Source of the DNA: a virus
Taxonomy: Duplodnaviria; Caudoviricetes
IMG/VR virus record: IMGVR_UViG_3300010311_001094
Coordinates: 29,466-93,465 of that record
Length of the DNA: 64,000 nt
Reading direction: 5' to 3' (one strand)
A program made the translations under genes and the position numbers. The notes under the pieces were generated by a model. It did no database searches. It was not told the DNA's origin and saw nothing but the letters and a program-made list of their open reading frames with translations. Shown one piece after another: positions 22,368-31,598 of the stretch (its first letter is position 1; every line of letters starts with the position of its first letter).

Positions 22368-22706
22368 CTATTTCTTTTTCGGTGCGAAAACCCTGACCGG
22401 AACGTGCTGTTCCCGGCAATGGTCTATCACATATTTCGTGCCGCGTGACTGTCCGTCCCAGAATGCCAGCACCACATCTGCATAGGCGATAATCTCCAGA
22501 TTCCGTTTCAGCGGGGCGCTTCGTCCGAAGCGTTCATAATCCGGCAGAAATTCCTTCAGCGGAATGCCGTGTGCCTTTGCGTATGCCCGTGCATCAGAAT
22601 CAATACCCCTCGCTCCTCCGCTGACGATCTCTGTGATACCCTCCGGCAGATACCGTTCAAGGTCATTCACATGAAGTCCTCGTGAGCCAATAATTGCTAT
22701 TTTCAT
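22368..22706 (-). CDS. SLOG-family (YspA/DUF2493-like) protein
   Basis: IAIIGSRG, IVSGGARGID, RN, AFWDGQSRGT. Confidence 0.85.
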   Translation of the reverse strand: MKIAIIGSRGLHVNDLERYLPEGITEIVSGGARGIDSDARAYAKAHGIPLKEFLPDYERFGRSAPLKRNLEIIAYADVVLAFWDGQSRGTKYVIDHCREQHVPVRVFAPKKK

Positions 22707-22819
22707 ATCGTGCAACTCCTTGTAGATATATTTTAGATACAATTTATATCCATTTCAAACATTATACCACAGAATAGGTCTAAAATAAAGTCATAATATA
22801 TCTGAAAGGAATTCGTTTT

Positions 22820-23023
22820 ATGGCTATCAAAAGTGTATCCATCCGCATTGAACAGGAGATGCTTGATAAACTTCACGTTGTTGCTGACTACGAAGGTCGT
22901 TCTGCCAACAGTCAGGTTTTGATCCTGATCCGTGATTGCATTGAAAAATATGAGGAAAAGCACGGAAAGATCGAGCTTGGCGGAGACAAGAAATCCGAAA
23001 TAAGTGTATCTCATCGGCACTGA
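22820..23023 (+). CDS. Arc/ribbon-helix-helix DNA-binding protein
   Basis: SVSIRI ribbon, ADYEGRSANSQV. Confidence 0.85.
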   Translation: MAIKSVSIRIEQEMLDKLHVVADYEGRSANSQVLILIRDCIEKYEEKHGKIELGGDKKSEISVSHRH

Positions 23024-23076: not shown

Positions 23077-25248
23077 TCACTTTTGTGTATCTCTCTGCGC
23101 CACCCAAGCGATACCCGAAAGCACGAAGTATGGAATCGGCAGTGAGATCCCGTTGCCCCACAGCTTGTACTCTGCGGAATCCGTGTAGGGATCAGCAAGC
23201 CATTTCCTGATTTGCTTTTCAGTTTTCGGTTTTCCCTTGGGGTTTGTGACCCGCCGCCATGTCTCCCAGACCTCCGTCCAGAAGGTGATCTTCTCATCGG
23301 TCGGATCGGGAATCGCAAGGTCGGCACACCACCAGTCGGGGAATCCCTGCAATCTGGCGCACTCCACCGGAGTCAGACGACGAACGATATATACCGGCTC
23401 GTCATTCGGAAGGTCGTTCACAAGCGGAGGATCCTTCCAGTCGGATGCGACCAGCGTGTTTGCCTGTTCATGTGCGGCGACTGTGTGGTGAGAATTCTTG
23501 CTTGTGCTGTAGTGATCGGCATCCGGTGCTGCGACAGCATGCCTGTCTGTTGTGTTCAGCGTAAAGCACACATCTTCATTGATACCATCACCCTGCGGTC
23601 CGTTCTGATCGGCGCGACCGATCATCGAGCCTTGCAGTGCATAGGTCTCCTTCTCGGCTACCACAACAGCCTGCTGATTGTCTCCGGCATTTGCACGGAG
23701 CGTGCCGCTTTTGCCGTCACTGTATACATGACCGCCGATACGGGATGCCGCCCCCGGTTCGAGAGCCACCACCGCAACTCCTCCGTGATTGCTGTCCGGG
23801 TTCGCCTCGCTCGTATCAAGGCATCGGGAAATGTCTGTCGGGTAACAATGCCCACGAGCATTTTTCGTGCCGTCCGATGTGAAACGCACATCGAAGGTCT
23901 CCGGTGCAGGTGCTACCACGCAGATGCCGCCCTGATTCGATGTCACAGAATTTCCACCACTTCGGTCGAGCGTTCTGCTTGTGGTCGCCTCATAGAATCC
24001 GCTGTGCGGATTGTCGGACATCATCGCATTGGAATGCTTGCTGCATACACCGAAGGCTTTGATCTCTGGCTGAAAGAGTGTCTGGTCGTTGTTGGTAGCA
24101 AGCGTAGCAGATTTATCAGTTTGCCAGAGAGCGCCCTTGCCGCCGCCTTCGCAGCCTGACCTGATTTTCAGCGTGATCGGTTCAGCGACAAGCGGTACAT
24201 TGTTGCCGCCCGTCCCGGCTCTGCTGCAAAGTGTCTGGCAGGTGTCGTCCTCACGGATCTTCACCCGACCGTCCGTCGGATGGTTTTCGACCGAGAGTGC
24301 GGCGGGAACAACTCCTGCCCTCAGTGTCGGGGAGACTTCCTCCTCGTATCCGATGCTGCGTGCTTTGGCACTGTGTTCTGTGGAGAATCCCGCCGCATGA
24401 AGTACCGCCGGATGGTTGCCGTGATCCTGTGCGACCAGTGCGAGAGCCTTGTTCTCGGTGATGCCGACGCCGCTGTTGCCCTGTGTATTCAGGCAGAGGG
24501 TTCCACCTCCAGCGTCAGACCGCCCGCCTGTCTCTCCAGTGCCTTCTTCAGCACCTCCGGCAGCTCCTTGCCACGCACGGAAGCCCTGCGGAGTATACCC
24601 AGACACGCCTTCGGACTTAAATAGTATTTCTCCGGCACTTCCGCCAGCAAAATCTGCGACAAGGTAGATTCTTGCTCTGCGTTGGGGGACACCCCAGTAT
24701 TGAGCATCGAAAACTCGGTAAGCCACGCTCCATCCGTCTCCCAGATACACGTCTGATTTTGCCCATCTGTGATTTTCAGGCGCAGGCACCTCGATCCCTT
24801 TTTCTTTAACTCCGATAACTGCTTCGAGGACAGCCTTGAAGTCGTTTCCTCCGTTGGATGAGAAAGCGCCGGGGACATTTTCCCAGACGCAGTATCGCGG
24901 ATATCGTCCATTTGTTGCATCCCTCATTTCTTTGATGATGCGGATCGCCTGAAAGAACAGGTTCGACCGATCACCGTCATGGATTCCGGCACGCTTGCCC
25001 GCAATAGACAGGTCCTGACAAGGACTGCCTAAGGTGATGATATCCACCGGCGGAAGCTCTGCGCCGTTTAGCGTAGATACATCACCGTAGTGCTGCACCT
25101 GCGGCAGCCGCTTGTGCGTGACAAGCACCGGAAAAGGTTCAATTTCGCTGCTCCACCTTGGCTCGATCCCTGCGAGGATGCCACCAAGCGGAAAGCCCCC
25201 GGAGCCGTCAAACAGGCTGCCGAGGGTCAAGTGTTTCTTATCCATCAT
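23077..25248 (-). CDS. dcm: DNA (cytosine-5) methyltransferase with expanded variable region
   Basis: SLFDGSGG, GSPCQD, ENV, QRRAR, RRLTPVECARLQGFP, GNG; AAAGGAGG RBS before 25248. Confidence 0.93.
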   Translation of the reverse strand: MMDKKHLTLGSLFDGSGGFPLGGILAGIEPRWSSEIEPFPVLVTHKRLPQVQHYGDVSTLNGAELPPVDIITLGSPCQDLSIAGKRAGIHDGDRSNLFFQAIRIIKEMRDATNGRYPRYCVWENVPGAFSSNGGNDFKAVLEAVIGVKEKGIEVPAPENHRWAKSDVYLGDGWSVAYRVFDAQYWGVPQRRARIYLVADFAGGSAGEILFKSEGVSGYTPQGFRAWQGAAGGAEEGTGETGGRSDAGGGTLCLNTQGNSGVGITENKALALVAQDHGNHPAVLHAAGFSTEHSAKARSIGYEEEVSPTLRAGVVPAALSVENHPTDGRVKIREDDTCQTLCSRAGTGGNNVPLVAEPITLKIRSGCEGGGKGALWQTDKSATLATNNDQTLFQPEIKAFGVCSKHSNAMMSDNPHSGFYEATTSRTLDRSGGNSVTSNQGGICVVAPAPETFDVRFTSDGTKNARGHCYPTDISRCLDTSEANPDSNHGGVAVVALEPGAASRIGGHVYSDGKSGTLRANAGDNQQAVVVAEKETYALQGSMIGRADQNGPQGDGINEDVCFTLNTTDRHAVAAPDADHYSTSKNSHHTVAAHEQANTLVASDWKDPPLVNDLPNDEPVYIVRRLTPVECARLQGFPDWWCADLAIPDPTDEKITFWTEVWETWRRVTNPKGKPKTEKQIRKWLADPYTDSAEYKLWGNGISLPIPYFVLSGIAWVAQRDTQK
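24489..24911 (-). CDS. Nested alternative-frame C5-MTase beta-like polypeptide
   Basis: GAGGG 9 nt before ATG 24911; STLSQILLAEVPEKYYLSPKACLGILRRA resembles the segment normally in-frame in C5-MTases and M.EcoHK31I beta. Confidence 0.7.
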   Translation of the reverse strand: MDDIRDTASGKMSPALSHPTEETTSRLSSKQLSELKKKGSRCLRLKITDGQNQTCIWETDGAWLTEFSMLNTGVSPNAEQESTLSQILLAEVPEKYYLSPKACLGILRRASVRGKELPEVLKKALERQAGGLTLEVEPSA

Positions 25249-25453
25249 CCGCCTCCTTTGCGTTCCTGCACAGATTGAGGAAGTCCTCCCTGATCTGCTC
25301 TCTGTAAGCCATCGCCACCGCAGGAATCTCGTGTGTATACACCGGTCTGCCGATAAAGCCGGAAAGATAGTCATACAGATATTTCAGATCATCGCCCTTG
25401 AGCATAGAAATCTCTGTGTAAGCGGTCACGACCGCGCATTCATGCTTCGTCAT
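25238..25453 (-). CDS. Hypothetical protein, 71 aa
   Basis: Overlaps both neighbouring MTase genes; GRPVYTHE motif. Confidence 0.7.
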   Translation of the reverse strand: MTKHECAVVTAYTEISMLKGDDLKYLYDYLSGFIGRPVYTHEIPAVAMAYREQIREDFLNLCRNAKEADDG

Positions 25454-26225
25454 CGGTATCCTCCCCAAGCATCAGTTCACAGGCTTTATTATAAAAATCC
25501 CGGCTGACTTCAAAGCCGTAGCTGTGTCTGCCAAGCTCCCTCGCCGCACGCAGCGTTGAGCCGGAACCGGCGCAGGGATCGATGACCACATCACCCTCGT
25601 CGGTAAATATCCCGATCAGACGTTTCAGTACGGAAATCGGCTTCTGCGAAGGATGTATCTTCGGGATATCCTTGCCGTCCCGCATCCAGTCAAAATGGTC
25701 GAAGATCATGTGCCTCTTGCCGTATGCATCGGTATTGCGGAACTTCGGCAGCTTTCCCCGATACAGCACCAGAGCATACTCCGTTGCGCCCACGATCCTC
25801 ATGTTCGCCTTCAGCACCTGCGGACTGTAATTCTTCATAAAGCACAAAAACTGATACTTCTTGAAGCCGTATTTCTCCGCCTGCCGGATGACCTCGGGTA
25901 TCTGCTGAAAGGCACAGAATACGATCATGCAGGGAGCATCCTTCTCACCTTTGGACGGCTCCTTTTTGAGCAGCCGGTTACAGAAGGCGAAGTATTCAGC
26001 GATGTTGAAGGTGTAATCCGTGTGGAATGCAGCCTTGTGCGCTTTGCTGCTTTCACCGTTCTGATTGTCACCGTTCACATACCAGTCGGGACGGGATGCG
26101 TAAAAGTCCCCGCCGATATTGTAGGGAATGTCTGCGATGACGAGTTGTGCTTTCGGAATGCAGTAGGATTTGAAGTTCTGGAAATTATCGTGATACAGCT
26201 CACATTTCACATCAGCCATCGACAT
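25440..26225 (-). CDS. DNA N6-adenine/N4-cytosine methyltransferase (beta class)
   Basis: IADIPY, HPSQKP, DPCAGSGST. Confidence 0.88.
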   Translation of the reverse strand: MSMADVKCELYHDNFQNFKSYCIPKAQLVIADIPYNIGGDFYASRPDWYVNGDNQNGESSKAHKAAFHTDYTFNIAEYFAFCNRLLKKEPSKGEKDAPCMIVFCAFQQIPEVIRQAEKYGFKKYQFLCFMKNYSPQVLKANMRIVGATEYALVLYRGKLPKFRNTDAYGKRHMIFDHFDWMRDGKDIPKIHPSQKPISVLKRLIGIFTDEGDVVIDPCAGSGSTLRAARELGRHSYGFEVSRDFYNKACELMLGEDTDDEA

Positions 26226-27015
26226 CCTCCAGTCTCTTTTTCAGCGCCTTGCGGAATTCCTTGGTGCCGAGCTGATTTCCGTCCGTCTGCCATTCCAGTT
26301 CAAAATCAAAACGAGCCTCCAGTTTCCGGACTGACCATCCGGGCTTGAAGGTGCGCCATGTTGCATCATCCCATGCTCTGAGCTGTTTCCAGAGATCAGG
26401 GAAATCGAAATACAGAATCCGCAGCTCGTTCAGCGGCTGCAGCGGACAGCACCAACAGGATACTCGTCCGAACTTCTCATACAGACCGCCCCAGTCGTAG
26501 CCGCGTTCCTTGCAGTATTGCAGGCAGTCGGCTTCGGTCATGCCCCACTCCACAAGCGGCAGCCGGACCTTCGGTCGGCTGTTGCACTTGTGCGTGATGC
26601 GCTCCGTCTCATCGGCGGCGATGCCGATGTACTCGATCACCGTGTACTTCTTTCGCAGTTCGCTGAGGAATTTCTCACGGGGTACTGTTTTCAGAAGATT
26701 GGTACACCACCGCATCAGCGGTCCCGCCCAACTGTATCCGGTCTTGCCGCGCAGTTCCGGCTTTTTCCGTTTGATTGGCTTATGGAGCATGAGATATTCA
26801 AAGGTATATTCGCTCTTGACAGTCGTAACCTTCATGCCGGTATCCTGTTCGACTTTGTGTACATGGTCATACAGTGCCGGGAATTCTAATCCGGTATCGC
26901 AAAACAGCACCAGATCAACCTGCATTCCCATTTCTAACATCTTCAGGAGCATCGCAGTGCTGTCTTTCCCGCCGCTGAAGGAGACCACATGAAGCAGAGG
27001 TTTCAGTTCACCCAT
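26212..27015 (-). CDS. PAPS reductase-family (PP-loop) protein
   Basis: SFSGGKDS, DTG.EFP, RWCT..LK, RVSCWCCP. Confidence 0.88.
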   Translation of the reverse strand: MGELKPLLHVVSFSGGKDSTAMLLKMLEMGMQVDLVLFCDTGLEFPALYDHVHKVEQDTGMKVTTVKSEYTFEYLMLHKPIKRKKPELRGKTGYSWAGPLMRWCTNLLKTVPREKFLSELRKKYTVIEYIGIAADETERITHKCNSRPKVRLPLVEWGMTEADCLQYCKERGYDWGGLYEKFGRVSCWCCPLQPLNELRILYFDFPDLWKQLRAWDDATWRTFKPGWSVRKLEARFDFELEWQTDGNQLGTKEFRKALKKRLEDVDG

Positions 27016-28291
27016 TCGTATCACCACCCTCTGCTGTCGGCATCGCTGCCACCGCTTCATCGAAGGAAAGCTTCTGTCCGTCACGGATGACATACACATC
27101 ATCGTACTTGCCCTCGCGGAATTTGATATACCGCTTCACTTGAACGTCCACAAACTTTTCATCCAATTCTACAGCTCTGCATTTTCGGTCGAGCTGTTCA
27201 CAGGCGATCATGGTAGAACCGGAACCGTGGAAGCCGTCCAGCACAATGCCGTTTGTCATGGTGGACTGCTTGATGAGATATGCCATCAGCGGTACAGGCT
27301 TTGCAGTCGGATGTCCCTCACCCTCGGCTTTGGAGCTTTTCGGACGGTCGAAGTCAAAGCAGGTGGTCTGCTTACGGTCACCGTACCATGTGTGCTTGCC
27401 GTCCTTTTTCCAGCCGTAGATCACAGGCTCGAAGTTCTGCTGATAGTCCGTCCTCGACAGCACAAGCCTGTCCTTGCGCCAGACCAATCCGCAAGAAACA
27501 CGGAATCCGGCATCCTCGAAAGCGTCATAGAACACCCTCGATTTTGATGTCGCGTAGAAAACATACACCGCAGAATCATCTGCAAGGTTCTCTTTGAAAC
27601 AGGCAAATGCGCTTTTCAGGAATTCATAGCCTTCCTTATCCGAAAGGTCATCGTTCTTGATGCTGCCGGAGGTATTGCTGTATGCTACGAGGTACGGCGG
27701 ATCGGTCAGCAGGAGATTTGCTTTTTCACCGTTCATAAGCAGCTCGTAGGTTTCCGACTTGGTGCTGTCACCGCAGACGATACGGTGCTTGCCCAGAATC
27801 CACAGGTCACCGAGTTTTGAGAAGGTCGGCTGTTTCAGCTCTTCTTCAATATCAAAGTCATCTTCCTTGATGTCTTTATTGTGTACCTGATTGAAAAGCT
27901 GCTCGATCTCCGGCGGATCAAAGCCGGTCTTTCCGAGGTCGAAGTCGCTGTCCTGAATGTCCTGCAACAGTTCAGCCAGAAGGCTCTCGTCCCATGCGCC
28001 GGTGATCTTGTTGAGCGCAATGTTCAGCGCCTTTTCTCTGACCTTGTCGATGTCCACCACCGCACAGGGTACCTCGGTGTATCCGAGCGCCATCGCTACG
28101 GTCAGTCGCTGATGCCCGCCGATGATGGTCATGTCGGCGTTGACTACCAGCGGATCGGCAAAGCCGAATTCCTCGATGCTGTTTTTGATCTTTTCGTATT
28201 CCTTGTCGCCGGGCTTCAGCTTTTTGCGCGGGTTATATGCCGCAGGCTTCAGCTCCGTGACAGGGATCACACGAAGTTCTGCTGTCTTCAT
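27008..28291 (-). CDS. ParB-like N-terminal domain fused to DNA N6/N4 methyltransferase
   Basis: YNPR...GF..P...IIGGHQR; TDPPY; HPTAKP; DGFHGSGST. Confidence 0.9.
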   Translation of the reverse strand: MKTAELRVIPVTELKPAAYNPRKKLKPGDKEYEKIKNSIEEFGFADPLVVNADMTIIGGHQRLTVAMALGYTEVPCAVVDIDKVREKALNIALNKITGAWDESLLAELLQDIQDSDFDLGKTGFDPPEIEQLFNQVHNKDIKEDDFDIEEELKQPTFSKLGDLWILGKHRIVCGDSTKSETYELLMNGEKANLLLTDPPYLVAYSNTSGSIKNDDLSDKEGYEFLKSAFACFKENLADDSAVYVFYATSKSRVFYDAFEDAGFRVSCGLVWRKDRLVLSRTDYQQNFEPVIYGWKKDGKHTWYGDRKQTTCFDFDRPKSSKAEGEGHPTAKPVPLMAYLIKQSTMTNGIVLDGFHGSGSTMIACEQLDRKCRAVELDEKFVDVQVKRYIKFREGKYDDVYVIRDGQKLSFDEAVAAMPTAEGGDTNG

Positions 28292-28292
28292 C

Positions 28293-28627
28293 TCATCCCT
28301 CCACATAGTACAACTGCCGTAGCTTTGCGGCTCGTTTTAAGTTCTGCTCTTTCAGCGCAGCCATCTCGCGGAGCGACTGTTCACTCAGCGGCTTGATCTT
28401 GTGCTTTTCCGCAAGCGTTCTGTATCTGCGGATATCCTTGCAGAGGTCTGCATCCGTAACGGATACGAGATACGCCTTGCCGCAATAGTCGCAGCGGAAG
28501 AAGCTGTATTCGATCTCACCCTCACGCTGCGTCAGTGTTTCCGGCACAAATGCACATCCGCACTTATCGCACCGCACTGCATTCTTCAGCACAATGCGAG
28601 GTTTGCTTTTCTTGTTTTTTCGCTCAT
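28293..28627 (-). pseudogene. Zinc-finger protein with probable 1-nt deletion in an A6 run
   Basis: GGAAAGGAG RBS and ATG at 28627 are out of frame by one base with the CDKC...CDYC body; A7 would give MSEKNKKSKPRIVLKNAVRC. Confidence 0.55.
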
Positions 28628-29454: not shown

Positions 29455-31598
29455 AGATGCATCACCCTGTCCTTTATTTCGGCAGTGCGTCCCTGATTCC
29501 AGAACTGGGTTCCGAGGTAGCCGCAGGTACGGCGGCAGACATTCAGCGTCCGCTGATCCCGGTTGCCGCAGTTCGGGCATTCCCAGATCAGCTTGCCGTC
29601 TTCTTCCACGATCCCGATCTCGCCGTCATAGCCGCAAGCCTGACAGTAATCGGACTTGGTATTCAGTTCGGCGTACAGAATCGTTTCGTAGATGTGTCTC
29701 ATGAGCACCAGCACTGCAGGGATATTGTTTTGCAGATTCGGTACTTCCACATAACTGATCGCACCGCCCGGAGAAAGCTCCTGAAACTCTGCCTCAAAAA
29801 TTAGCTTGCTGAAGGCATCGATCGGCTCAGTCACATGGACATGATAGCTGTTGGTGATATAGCTCTTGTCGGTCACATGAGGAATGATGCCGTGTCTGCG
29901 CTGCAAACATTGTGCAAATTTGTAGGTGACGCTCTCCATCGGCGTGCCGTACAGCGAAAAGCTGATGTTTGTTTCGGCTCTCCACTTGCTGCACTTGTCG
30001 TTCAGGAATTGCATCACTGAAATGGCGAAGGATTTTCCCTCCGACTCTGTATGCGAACAGCCTGTCATGCGGTAGGTCATTTCCGCAATGCCGGCATAGC
30101 CGAGGGAAATGGTGCTGTAATTGTTGTATAGCAGATCATCAATGACCTCGCCTTTGCCGAGCCTTGCGAGTGCGCCGTACTGCCAGAGGATCGGCGCAAC
30201 ATCGGACGGTGTTCCTGTCAGCCTGTCATGCATGCACATCAGAGCCTTGCGGCACAGTTCGCAGCGTTCATTCAGAAGCTGCCAGAACTTTTCTGTATCA
30301 CCGTCTGCTGAACACGCCACATCCACCAGATTCAGCGTGATAACGCCCTGATTGAATCTGCCATAATACTTGTGATCGGTAGACGGTGTGAGAAAACTGC
30401 GGCACCCCATGCAGGCATACACATCACCCTTCAGCTTTTTCATGATCTTGGCAGAGATATAGTCGGGCACCATGCGCTTTGCCGTACACTTGGCAGCAAG
30501 CTCGGTCAGATACCAGTAGCGGCTGTCCTCGGTGATATTGTCTTCATCGAGAACATAGATCAGCTTCGGGAATGCCGGGGTGATCCAGACCCCCTTTTCG
30601 TTTTTGACACCCTCGATACGCTGAAGCAGCGTTTCCTCGATAATGAGTGCAAGGTCATCTCTGGTCTGTCCCTCCGGTGCCTCGTCCAGATACATAAACA
30701 CCGTTACAAACGGTGTTTGCCCGTTGGTGGTGAGCAGTGTGTTTATCTGGTACTGTATCGTCTGCACGCCTCGCTTGACTTCCCGGCGAACTCGTTTCTC
30801 AACGATGTGGTTCAGTTCCTCGTCACTTAGCTTTGCGCCGCAGTCGCAGTTCACATCCTCGAACACCTCGGCACGAATTTTCTGTCGGCTGATATCCACG
30901 AAAGGCGCAAGATGTGCCAGAGATACCGTCTGTCCGCCGTACTGATTTGATGCCACCTGTGCAATGATCTGCGTTGCGATATTGCAGGCAGTCGAAAAGC
31001 TGTGCGGCTTCTCAATCATAGTACCGGATACCACTGTGCCGTTCTGAAGCATATCCTCCAGATTCACCAGACAGCAGTTGTGCATCGGCTCTGCGATGTA
31101 GTCCAAATCGTGTACATGAATGATCCCGTCATCGTGGGCGGCGATCACATCCTCCGGAAACAGGAATCTGCGGCAGATGTCTCTGCTGACCTCCCCCGCC
31201 ATATAGTCACGGAGCGTGCTGTTGATGATCGGGTTCTTGTTGGCGTTCTCCTGTTTTGCCTCCTCGTTGTTCCTCTCAAGGAGACTGAGAATCTTGCCGT
31301 CCGTTGTGTTCATCCGGCGCTGCTGTTCATGCAGGAGTCTGTATTCGCTGTAGTGCCGTGCAAGTTTGTAAGCTTCGGCCCTGTCCAGTTCATCAAGAAC
31401 CATGTCCTGGACTTCTTCGACATGGACAGGCCTTGCAAGTGCCTCACATCGCTTTTCTACATTACCAGCAATAAAGCCGATTACTGTATCTGTGATCCTG
31501 TCGCCGGAATCCATCTCATCGTTTGCCGCAGTAATTGCGGCTCTGATCTTTTCACAGTCATACGGCACCTCTGCGCCGTTTCGCTTGATAATTCTCAT
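29451..31598 (-). CDS. nrdD: Class III anaerobic ribonucleoside-triphosphate reductase
   Basis: ATP cone, NCCL, MGCRS, CQACG/CPNCG, RTCGYL glycyl-radical motif. Confidence 0.96.
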   Translation of the reverse strand: MRIIKRNGAEVPYDCEKIRAAITAANDEMDSGDRITDTVIGFIAGNVEKRCEALARPVHVEEVQDMVLDELDRAEAYKLARHYSEYRLLHEQQRRMNTTDGKILSLLERNNEEAKQENANKNPIINSTLRDYMAGEVSRDICRRFLFPEDVIAAHDDGIIHVHDLDYIAEPMHNCCLVNLEDMLQNGTVVSGTMIEKPHSFSTACNIATQIIAQVASNQYGGQTVSLAHLAPFVDISRQKIRAEVFEDVNCDCGAKLSDEELNHIVEKRVRREVKRGVQTIQYQINTLLTTNGQTPFVTVFMYLDEAPEGQTRDDLALIIEETLLQRIEGVKNEKGVWITPAFPKLIYVLDEDNITEDSRYWYLTELAAKCTAKRMVPDYISAKIMKKLKGDVYACMGCRSFLTPSTDHKYYGRFNQGVITLNLVDVACSADGDTEKFWQLLNERCELCRKALMCMHDRLTGTPSDVAPILWQYGALARLGKGEVIDDLLYNNYSTISLGYAGIAEMTYRMTGCSHTESEGKSFAISVMQFLNDKCSKWRAETNISFSLYGTPMESVTYKFAQCLQRRHGIIPHVTDKSYITNSYHVHVTEPIDAFSKLIFEAEFQELSPGGAISYVEVPNLQNNIPAVLVLMRHIYETILYAELNTKSDYCQACGYDGEIGIVEEDGKLIWECPNCGNRDQRTLNVCRRTCGYLGTQFWNQGRTAEIKDRVMHL

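Follow-up and report, generated by a model that had tools for sequence, protein, structure and literature searches.

A phage gene for a C5 cytosine DNA methyltransferase that stays open over a long stretch in a second reading frame raises the question of whether the same DNA encodes two proteins and, if it does, whether the smaller protein serves the larger one. We addressed this question for IMG/VR record IMGVR_UViG_3300010311_001094 (Caudoviricetes), a provirus of 93,465 bases whose nearest annotated relatives are gut Bacillota phages ("NatCom" phages, Ca. Heliusvirales). The analysis covered positions 29,466 to 93,465 of the record, a stretch of 64,000 nucleotides (nt) referred to below as the window. 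It contains a gene for a methyltransferase with multiple target recognition domains (TRDs), and a second open reading frame (ORF) is nested inside that gene on the same strand. The initial annotation of this DNA, made from the sequence alone, had described the nested ORF as a gene for a beta-like subunit. Our results indicate that the nested frame is very probably a real, selected overlapping gene, and homology together with structure modelling suggests that its product is probably a partner chain of the methyltransferase.

We counted as a C5 cytosine DNA methyltransferase a polypeptide that contains motifs I (FxGxGG), IV (PCQ), VI (ENV), VIII (QxRxR), IX and X (GN) and has a significant profile match. 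The main frame matches PF00145 at an E value of 1e-36, and motif mapping places all six motifs in this single frame, at residues 12-18 (I), 74-78 (IV), 122-127 (VI), 189-200 (VIII), 623-638 (IX) and 698-704 (X); motifs VIII and IX are separated by TRD-like modules that together take up approximately 400 residues. As listed, the main ORF extends further (23077..25374, minus strand), as 42 extra open codons (25249-25374, minus strand) precede ATG 25248 and overlap the end of the DUF7736 gene, leaving the frame open as far as ATG 25374. Since homologues start at the position of MMDKK, this reading of 765 amino acids (aa) is probably too long, and MMDKK is the likely start of the gene.

The nested ORF is offset from the main ORF by 454 nt and therefore lies in the +1 frame (coordinates of all features are collected in Table 1). 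The claim of a same-strand ORF of 140-143 aa wholly inside the methyltransferase gene held, as did the placement of motifs VI and VIII within it, of GAGGG at 24925-24921 ahead of its start codon, and of motif IX in the main frame. The longer of the two lengths would require ATG 24920, further upstream (143 aa; 24489..24920, minus strand), which is not conserved. Given the mapped motif positions, the nested ORF spans motifs VI to VIII and leaves motif IX to the main frame; its bases also cover the conserved ILFKSEG strand and a Gly/Ala-rich linker of the main chain. The nested product begins with MDDIRDTASGK.

In order to compare the two frames, we used a set of 80 IMG/VR loci that encode relatives of the ORF with 57-99% identity. 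In about 75 of the 80, a main frame of 600-1160 aa contains a +1 frame that lacks stops over 134-150 codons and begins and ends at the same places, and the third frame is open for only 51-186 nt. Stop codons in the nested frame of close homologues would speak against a second gene, and we looked for them: the frame is uninterrupted in all 60 full-length homologues of the fused type, and none was found in seven distant phages. Suppression of synonymous variation in the overlap, which the initial annotation had offered as a check, was assessed from a codon alignment of 61 unique genes by computing the entropy of each codon position. Third-position entropy of the main frame (H3) is 1.1-1.5 bits outside the nested ORF, 0.7-0.9 bits across its 5' part, and 0.29, 0.13 and 0.22 in its 3' part, where first-position entropy (H1), which corresponds to position 3 of the nested codons, becomes the largest; H3 is back to 1.30 in the bin immediately past the nested stop codon. 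The suppression is clearest at conserved four-fold degenerate codons of the main frame, where mean H3 falls from 1.41-1.42 in the flanks to 0.84 over the 5' half of the ORF and 0.10 over the 3' half (Mann-Whitney p 1.7e-6 and 1.8e-8, respectively).

Pooled Nei-Gojobori estimates of the ratio of nonsynonymous to synonymous substitution rates (dN/dS) describe the same region. In the 3' half of the ORF the ratio is 1.08 for the main frame and 0.23 for the +1 frame, and in the 5' half the +1 frame has a ratio of 0.97; for reference, the flanking main frame has 0.13-0.14, and the +1 baseline elsewhere is 1.45-1.69. From the entropy and dN/dS pattern it follows that selection acts strongly on the last 50-60 nested residues, at a cost to the main frame, and moderately on the first ~80, together with motifs VI-VIII. 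Over nested residues 80-130 the main frame encodes the end of motif VIII, the ILFKSEG strand and the Gly/Ala-rich linker. Within the 5' half, frozen main-frame codons overlie nested residues 42-45, 58-60 and 76; the four-fold codons over nested residues 38-47 are frozen at main codons 143-146 (trimmed numbering).

The signals expected of an independent start are conserved as well. The alignment column of ATG 24911 holds a start codon in 60 of 60 full-length homologues (ATG in 45, GTG in 14, TTG in 1) and is preceded by GAAATGAGG, which includes GAGG. The Arg codon within this GAGG is AGG in 59 of the 60, and AGG is the rarest Arg codon in the homologue genes (11.5%). The homologous ATG is preceded by GGAG or GAGG also in P1, TC7 and Javan108, and database proteins of the family (~135 aa or 250-620 aa) nearly all start at the homologous N-terminus. 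The nested ORF thus has three of the properties by which we recognize a dual-coding gene: its frame is kept open, purifying selection acts on it while synonymous change in the main frame is suppressed, and it has start signals of its own.

The nested gene is not restricted to close relatives of this provirus. A tblastn search with the last 73 nested residues found 137 phage records and 530 plasmids, most of the latter P1-like. The +1 match falls inside the annotated methyltransferase gene of P1 (dmt), Vibrio phage 1.171.O, Mycobacterium phage Omega (gp127), Streptococcus phage Javan108, Pseudomonas phage TC7, Caulobacter phage DMCA and Burkholderia phage Bcep22. In these seven distant phages the nested ORF has 135-221 codons, and its product ends in ..LSQ(V/I)LE..(K/R)Y(Y/F)LS.KAC.GI(L/I)RRAE.RGK.LP, encoded by bases that form an unconserved linker in the main frame. 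Judged from the density of +1 stops in each gene itself, the probability of such an open frame is 1e-5 to 2e-2 per gene, or ~1e-22 jointly if the seven phages are taken as independent. In all nine annotated records that we opened the nested gene is unannotated, and a full-text literature search found no description of it, which is weak evidence of absence because most subscription journals lie outside the coverage of that search. A profile search of 1.84 billion representatives returned 4484 at E<=1e-3.

The relatives found in these searches indicate what kind of protein the nested gene encodes. Hundreds of database proteins of 250-650 aa match 87-94% of the ORF with their first 130-140 residues, at 50-60% identity and E values of 1e-21 to 1e-35, and among the best 150 of the 4484 cluster representatives the domain is N-terminal in almost all. 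In the 250-650 aa proteins this domain is followed by TRD modules and by motifs IX and X, and motifs I-VIII are absent. These proteins are beta chains of split enzymes, with the alpha gene, carrying motifs I-VIII, directly upstream (examples of beta chains are proteins P0121, P0174 and P0211). The N-terminal domain family of these beta chains, which has neither a name nor a Pfam or NCBIfam model, was delimited by significant full-length similarity; the nested product shows such similarity and carries the family marks ..LNTG.SP.., LSQIL, KYYLS.KAC.GILRRA and RGK.LP. The proposal of a beta-like subunit is therefore supported by homology over ~90% of the ORF to beta N-domains, and also by a complex model on the enzyme, described below. 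Searches of Pfam, NCBIfam and PHROGs with the nested product gave no significant match (best CIDE-N at E 0.06 and phrog_16143 at E 0.016), and it does not match PF00145. A sequence search of the nested profile against solved structures produced nothing real, with antibody light chains on top at E ~0.4, and the ESM Atlas returned merely unnamed "hypothetical protein" clusters from viruses and Bacillota.

The split relatives differ in how the two genes are arranged. Alpha and beta genes are sequential in loci L003 and L004. In loci L005, L006 and L008 the two genes overlap instead: the last part of alpha is also read in the +1 frame as the N-domain of beta, exactly the arrangement of the nested ORF in the window. 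Compared with these loci, the window shows a single frame change at the end of the domain, such that TRD-IX-X continues the alpha frame and the domain ends free at 140 aa. Since it stops there, the domain is in this case a free small protein and not the head of a beta chain. A three-piece form, composed of gp127 as alpha, gp128 with motifs IX-X, and the nested ORF, occurs in Mycobacterium phage Omega.

Several further observations were made on members of this family. In the overlapping alpha/beta locus L005 (L005:973-2853), and also in L006, a 626-aa ORF resembling a group II intron reverse transcriptase lies inside the alpha gene before motif VI. The cluster J methyltransferase of Mycobacterium phages Schatzie (L002) and Omega is in pieces, with the nested +1 ORF present; in Schatzie an HNH endonuclease gene interrupts it, and its annotation reads 'unable to determine intron boundaries'. 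Protein P0125 (727 aa) follows the nested frame first and then the main frame, from the junction ..ESTLS/AGGSAGEILF.. onward, and is probably a deletion variant; P0126 is PolA-like (PF00476) with a nested-type domain at its C-terminus, and is probably a read-through gene call. Within the first ~15 residues, a sequence of the form Q[LMIV]x[LIM][FY] occurs in 59 of 83 beta chains, in 44 of 146 representatives and in some nested ORFs, in the versions QLTLF, QLSLF, QLCLF and QMSLF, and as DQLDLF in Omega (L093). Carriers of this start include P0143, P0147, P0165, P0174 and other proteins, and phages TC7 (L095) and Bcep22 (L097) in addition to Omega. We take it to resemble the bacterial sliding-clamp binding motif QL[SD]LF. 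A putative DNA polymerase III (Pol III) beta gene is located two genes upstream of the methyltransferase in phage TC7.

The correspondence between the two frames bears on the evolutionary origin of the overlap. Read in +1, ENVPG of motif VI becomes GKMSP, DAQYWGVP becomes MLNTGVSP, and the IYLVADF strand of motif VIII becomes STLSQIL; the relation of FDAQYWGVP to SMLNTGVS is also present in P1 and other distant phages. Because the overlaid main-frame motifs are universal in C5 methyltransferases, the nested domain most simply arose by overprinting. The beta chains of the non-overlapping loci (L003:2664-4789 and L004:1-2106) retain ..LNTG.AP.. and LS.IL, and the +1 frame of their alpha genes is broken by stops. 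The -1 frame of their beta N-domain contains a relic of the alpha tail (..KILSIKNSLSGHPAPRL followed by a stop, compared with ..KILFVPESLPGHPAPGL followed by a stop), which in L004 occupies nt 759-1040 and has its stop at the same place. This relic suggests that the domain was later moved out of the overlap by duplication.

We next consider how the product might act on the enzyme. The initial annotation had stated that a segment of the type LSxILE..V.EKYYLS, usual after motif VIII, is missing from the main frame. We searched the main chain for an in-frame copy of LSxIL..EKYYLS and found none, so that the absence stands; the likeness to the canonical segment is a weaker part of the claim and is discussed below. 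A main frame that would reach the segment in cis by means of two frameshifts was rejected as impossible, since motif VIII and LSQIL share bases. Modelled alone, the nested protein has a mean predicted local distance difference test score (pLDDT) of 59.5 and is confident just in its C-terminal helices (residues 100-113 and 119-129, pLDDT 75-89), and its N-terminal 25 residues are predicted to be disordered. Beta chain P0121 modelled alone is uninformative (mean pLDDT 48), and a fold search with the nested model among 48,161 solved chains found only generic helical hairpins (best Z 3.3), which is neutral on any fold.

The main chain was also modelled in complex with the nested product. The interaction prediction score from aligned errors (ipSAE) of this model is 0.78, 0.78 and 0.76, compared with 0.00 for the best of three controls; 58 of 80 solved complexes attain that mark, against 2 of 110 mismatched pairs. 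The pLDDT of the partner is at least 61, and contacts agree between runs to at least 62%. Modelled contacts involve residues 145-188, 210-224 and 618-633 (motif IX) of the main chain and residues 38-47, 55-63, 67-98 and 103-128 of the nested product. Nested residues 42-45, which underlie frozen main-frame codons, lie in the strand with the best modelled contacts.

These observations suggest a mechanism in which the nested frame would most likely be translated on the methyltransferase mRNA from its own start, ATG 24911, with GAGGG 9 nt before it. The product would be a small protein, partly disordered alone, that folds onto the enzyme. In the model, two nested strands pack on two parts of the main chain, the region that separates motifs VI and VIII and the ILFKSEG strand, and the conserved C-terminal segment (LSQIL..EKYYLS and two helices) lies against motif IX. 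The nested product may in this way supply in trans a segment that ordinary C5 methyltransferases have in cis right after motif VIII, and the small subunit would complete the hinge between the catalytic and recognition domains, its binding being modelled and its requirement deduced. We regard the chances that the methyltransferase needs the nested product for its activity as evenly balanced.

A number of points weigh against a nested gene whose product is a partner chain. Openness alone, in a single sequence, is not significant: when the main gene was subjected to 5000 synonymous-codon shuffles with protein and codon usage fixed, the same region remained open in +1 in 8.7% of them, and in 32% an open +1 stretch of 144 or more codons arose at some place in the gene. 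Constraint on the 5' half of the ORF is just moderate, and translation of the nested frame is something that we infer. The complex score is the model's own confidence, obtained with alignments that we supplied, and it may be inflated by trivial co-variation because both chains share the same DNA. Of the 46 interface residues on the main chain, 33 are encoded by bases that also encode the nested product; the best modelled contacts are offset by ~125 residues versus 112 for co-encoded positions, which eases this worry without removing it. At the modelled interface, conserved nested residues show no significant enrichment (odds ratio 1.67, p 0.11). Finally, likeness to the canonical segment after motif VIII is weakly supported, by profile envelopes and one non-significant alignment. 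On beta chain P0121, LSQIL..KYYLS is where the PF00145 and TIGR00675 alignments start (profile positions 171 and 180, immediately beyond motif VIII), and this stretch pairs with TLAQLLDPMVEAKYILT of a Dcm-like solved enzyme (3lx6) in that non-significant alignment. The comparative signal, unlike openness, exceeds chance, and it is decisive.

The nested gene could be real and its product not structural, acting instead as an adaptor or regulator, for example as a tether to the replication machinery or as a tuner of activity or specificity. Disorder predicted for the N-terminal 25 residues, the clamp-motif-like start found in many beta chains and representatives, and the putative Pol III beta gene near the TC7 methyltransferase would be consistent with such a role. 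However, the product in the window has no motif of the QLxLF type, the strongest selection is on the C-terminal core and not on the N-terminus, the domain is covalently joined to TRD-IX-X in split relatives, and the model docks it on the enzyme. We consider this explanation unlikely, and an adaptor role could coexist with a structural one. It is doubtful that, in the QLxLF relatives, the nested N-terminus couples the enzyme to the replication fork through the sliding clamp.

The +1 frame could also be reached from the main frame, via +1 ribosomal frameshifting or transcriptional slippage, to give a truncated isoform made of motifs I to VIII and a tail with KYYLS and the helices. Selection that is much stronger on the nested 3' half than on the 5' half is expected were only the tail read in +1. 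This explanation does not account for the retention of a start codon and GAGG at one column in every full-length homologue, nor for the 5' half, where synonymous variation is suppressed too, codons are frozen, and the frame is free of stops even in the seven very distant phages. In addition, standalone and beta-type proteins start at the homologous N-terminus, and a homopolymer run of at least 6 occurs in the overlap of just 1 of the 61 sequences, although no formal search for +1 shift sites was made. A frameshifted product is therefore very improbable.

It is very improbable that there is no second protein and that the open frame and frozen third positions are by-products of codon or RNA-structure constraint or a decaying relic of an alpha/beta split: openness is within chance in a single sequence and the +1 frame of this gene (56% G+C) is stop-poor, with 15 stops in the 568 codons outside the ORF, but such constraint does not predict a +1 dN/dS of 0.23 beside a main-frame value of 1.08, a relic would have gained stops and none were seen, and the amino-acid sequence is conserved from Bacillota phages to P1, Vibrio, Mycobacterium and Caulobacter phages over bases that are unconserved linker in the main frame.

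Taking the nested gene as real and its product as a probable partner chain, we tentatively propose a joint account, which we regard as possible and not yet as probable. The nested protein would be an obligatory trans-acting subunit in a very large clade of phage and phage-plasmid C5 methyltransferases that includes P1 Dmt; it would have been overprinted on motifs VI-VIII, would bind the segment that its own bases encode, and would later have been fused to TRD-IX-X or moved by duplication (L003 and L004), and in QLxLF relatives it may tie the enzyme to the sliding clamp or replication fork.

Should the enzyme need the nested protein, the phage "orphan" cytosine methyltransferases of an entire clade would be two-chain enzymes with a second gene that is invisible to annotation pipelines. 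This clade includes the long-studied P1 dmt and more than 500 P1-like plasmids. Expression or engineering of recoded genes would then fail, because codon optimisation destroys the nested frame. Among same-strand overlapping genes of bacteriophages, the nested gene would also rank with the deepest and most widespread, with conserved protein in both frames over ~130 codons. The fused gene with its nested ORF, the overlapping alpha/beta genes and the sequential alpha/beta genes form a natural series for the birth and resolution of an overlap, and with the nested frame present in P1 dmt, E. coli offers a direct test of the question.

The methyltransferase gene is located within a modification module, whose neighbouring genes span 25238-28306 (minus strand) of the window.

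Table 1. Features of the methyltransferase locus, in window coordinates.
Feature	Position	Strand	Remarks
Main gene, multi-TRD C5 cytosine methyltransferase, 723 aa	23077..25248	-	ATG 25248 (MMDKK...); PF00145
Nested gene, +1 frame, 140 codons + stop	24489..24911	-	Inside main methyltransferase ORF; start column kept in 60/60 homologues
GAGGG, Shine-Dalgarno-like site	24921..24925	-	9 nt 5' of ATG 24911; from main-frame codons ATG-AGG (Met-Arg)
Nested core, residues 80-130 (..STLSQIL..VPEKYYLSPKACLGILRRA..RGKELP..ALERQ)	24522..24674	-	Purifying selection on nested, not main, frame
Nested residues 38-47 (KGSRCLRLKI), predicted beta-strand	24771..24800	-	Lowest-error modelled contacts, to main residues 163-171
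SMLNTGVS of nested product	24687..24710	-	+1 reading of main-frame FDAQYWGVP, which runs into motif VIII
Main-frame motif VI (WENVPG)	24868-24885	-	+1 reading is GKMSP of nested product
Main-frame motif VIII (QRRARIYLVADF)	24649-24684	-	Identical bases give ..AEQESTLSQIL.. in nested product
Main-frame motif IX (RRLTPVECARLQGFPD)	23335-23382	-	Part of modelled docking surface for nested product (main residues 618-633)
Main-frame motif X	23137-23157	-	Motif mapping
DUF7736	25238-25468	-	Module neighbour
N6_N4 methylase	25440-26225	-	Module neighbour
PAPS-reductase-like protein	26212-27102	-	Module neighbour
ParB_N + N6_N4 methylase	27008-28306	-	Module neighbour
Arc-like repressor	22820-23023	+	Downstream of methyltransferase
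SLOG/YspA-like protein	22368-22742		Downstream of methyltransferase

Known systems resemble this locus in different respects. Bacillus phages encode multispecific C5 methyltransferases, among them M.SPRI and M.Phi3TI, which have been described as single-chain enzymes and for which no nested gene is known. The enzyme of the window resembles them in being phage-encoded and in having many TRD-like modules arrayed between motifs VIII and IX, presumably as protection from several restriction systems. The classic split C5 methyltransferase is M.AquI. Motifs I-VIII and IX-X are divided between separate chains in the split relatives L003, L004 and L008, and the nested product shares homology with the first 130-140 residues of the beta chains encoded by the split loci L003, L004, L005/L006 and L008; unlike these relatives, the window holds motifs I to X in its main frame.

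The closest parallel in coding principle is M.EcoHK31I of E. coli HK31 (recognition sequence YGGCCR), a heterodimeric C5 methyltransferase whose beta chain is encoded wholly within another frame of the alpha gene and whose activity needs the association of alpha and beta (PMC2836561). In that enzyme beta carries motif IX, and alpha carries motifs I-VIII, motif X and the TRD (PMC2836561). As in M.EcoHK31I, a second chain is encoded in the window wholly in another frame of the gene for the large chain, and the proposed logic of a large chain with a small nested chain is the same. Unlike M.EcoHK31I beta, the nested chain of the window has no numbered motif; it would correspond to the segment following motif VIII, and its gene overlaps motifs VI-VIII. 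Because motif IX is in the main chain (23335-23382), the principle is shared and the partition is not, as the initial annotation had anticipated. Membership of the nested chain in the M.EcoHK31I family is not established, the likeness being drawn from the published description (PMC2836561). M.EcoHK31I is one enzyme, whereas the nested gene found in the window is spread over thousands of phage genes.

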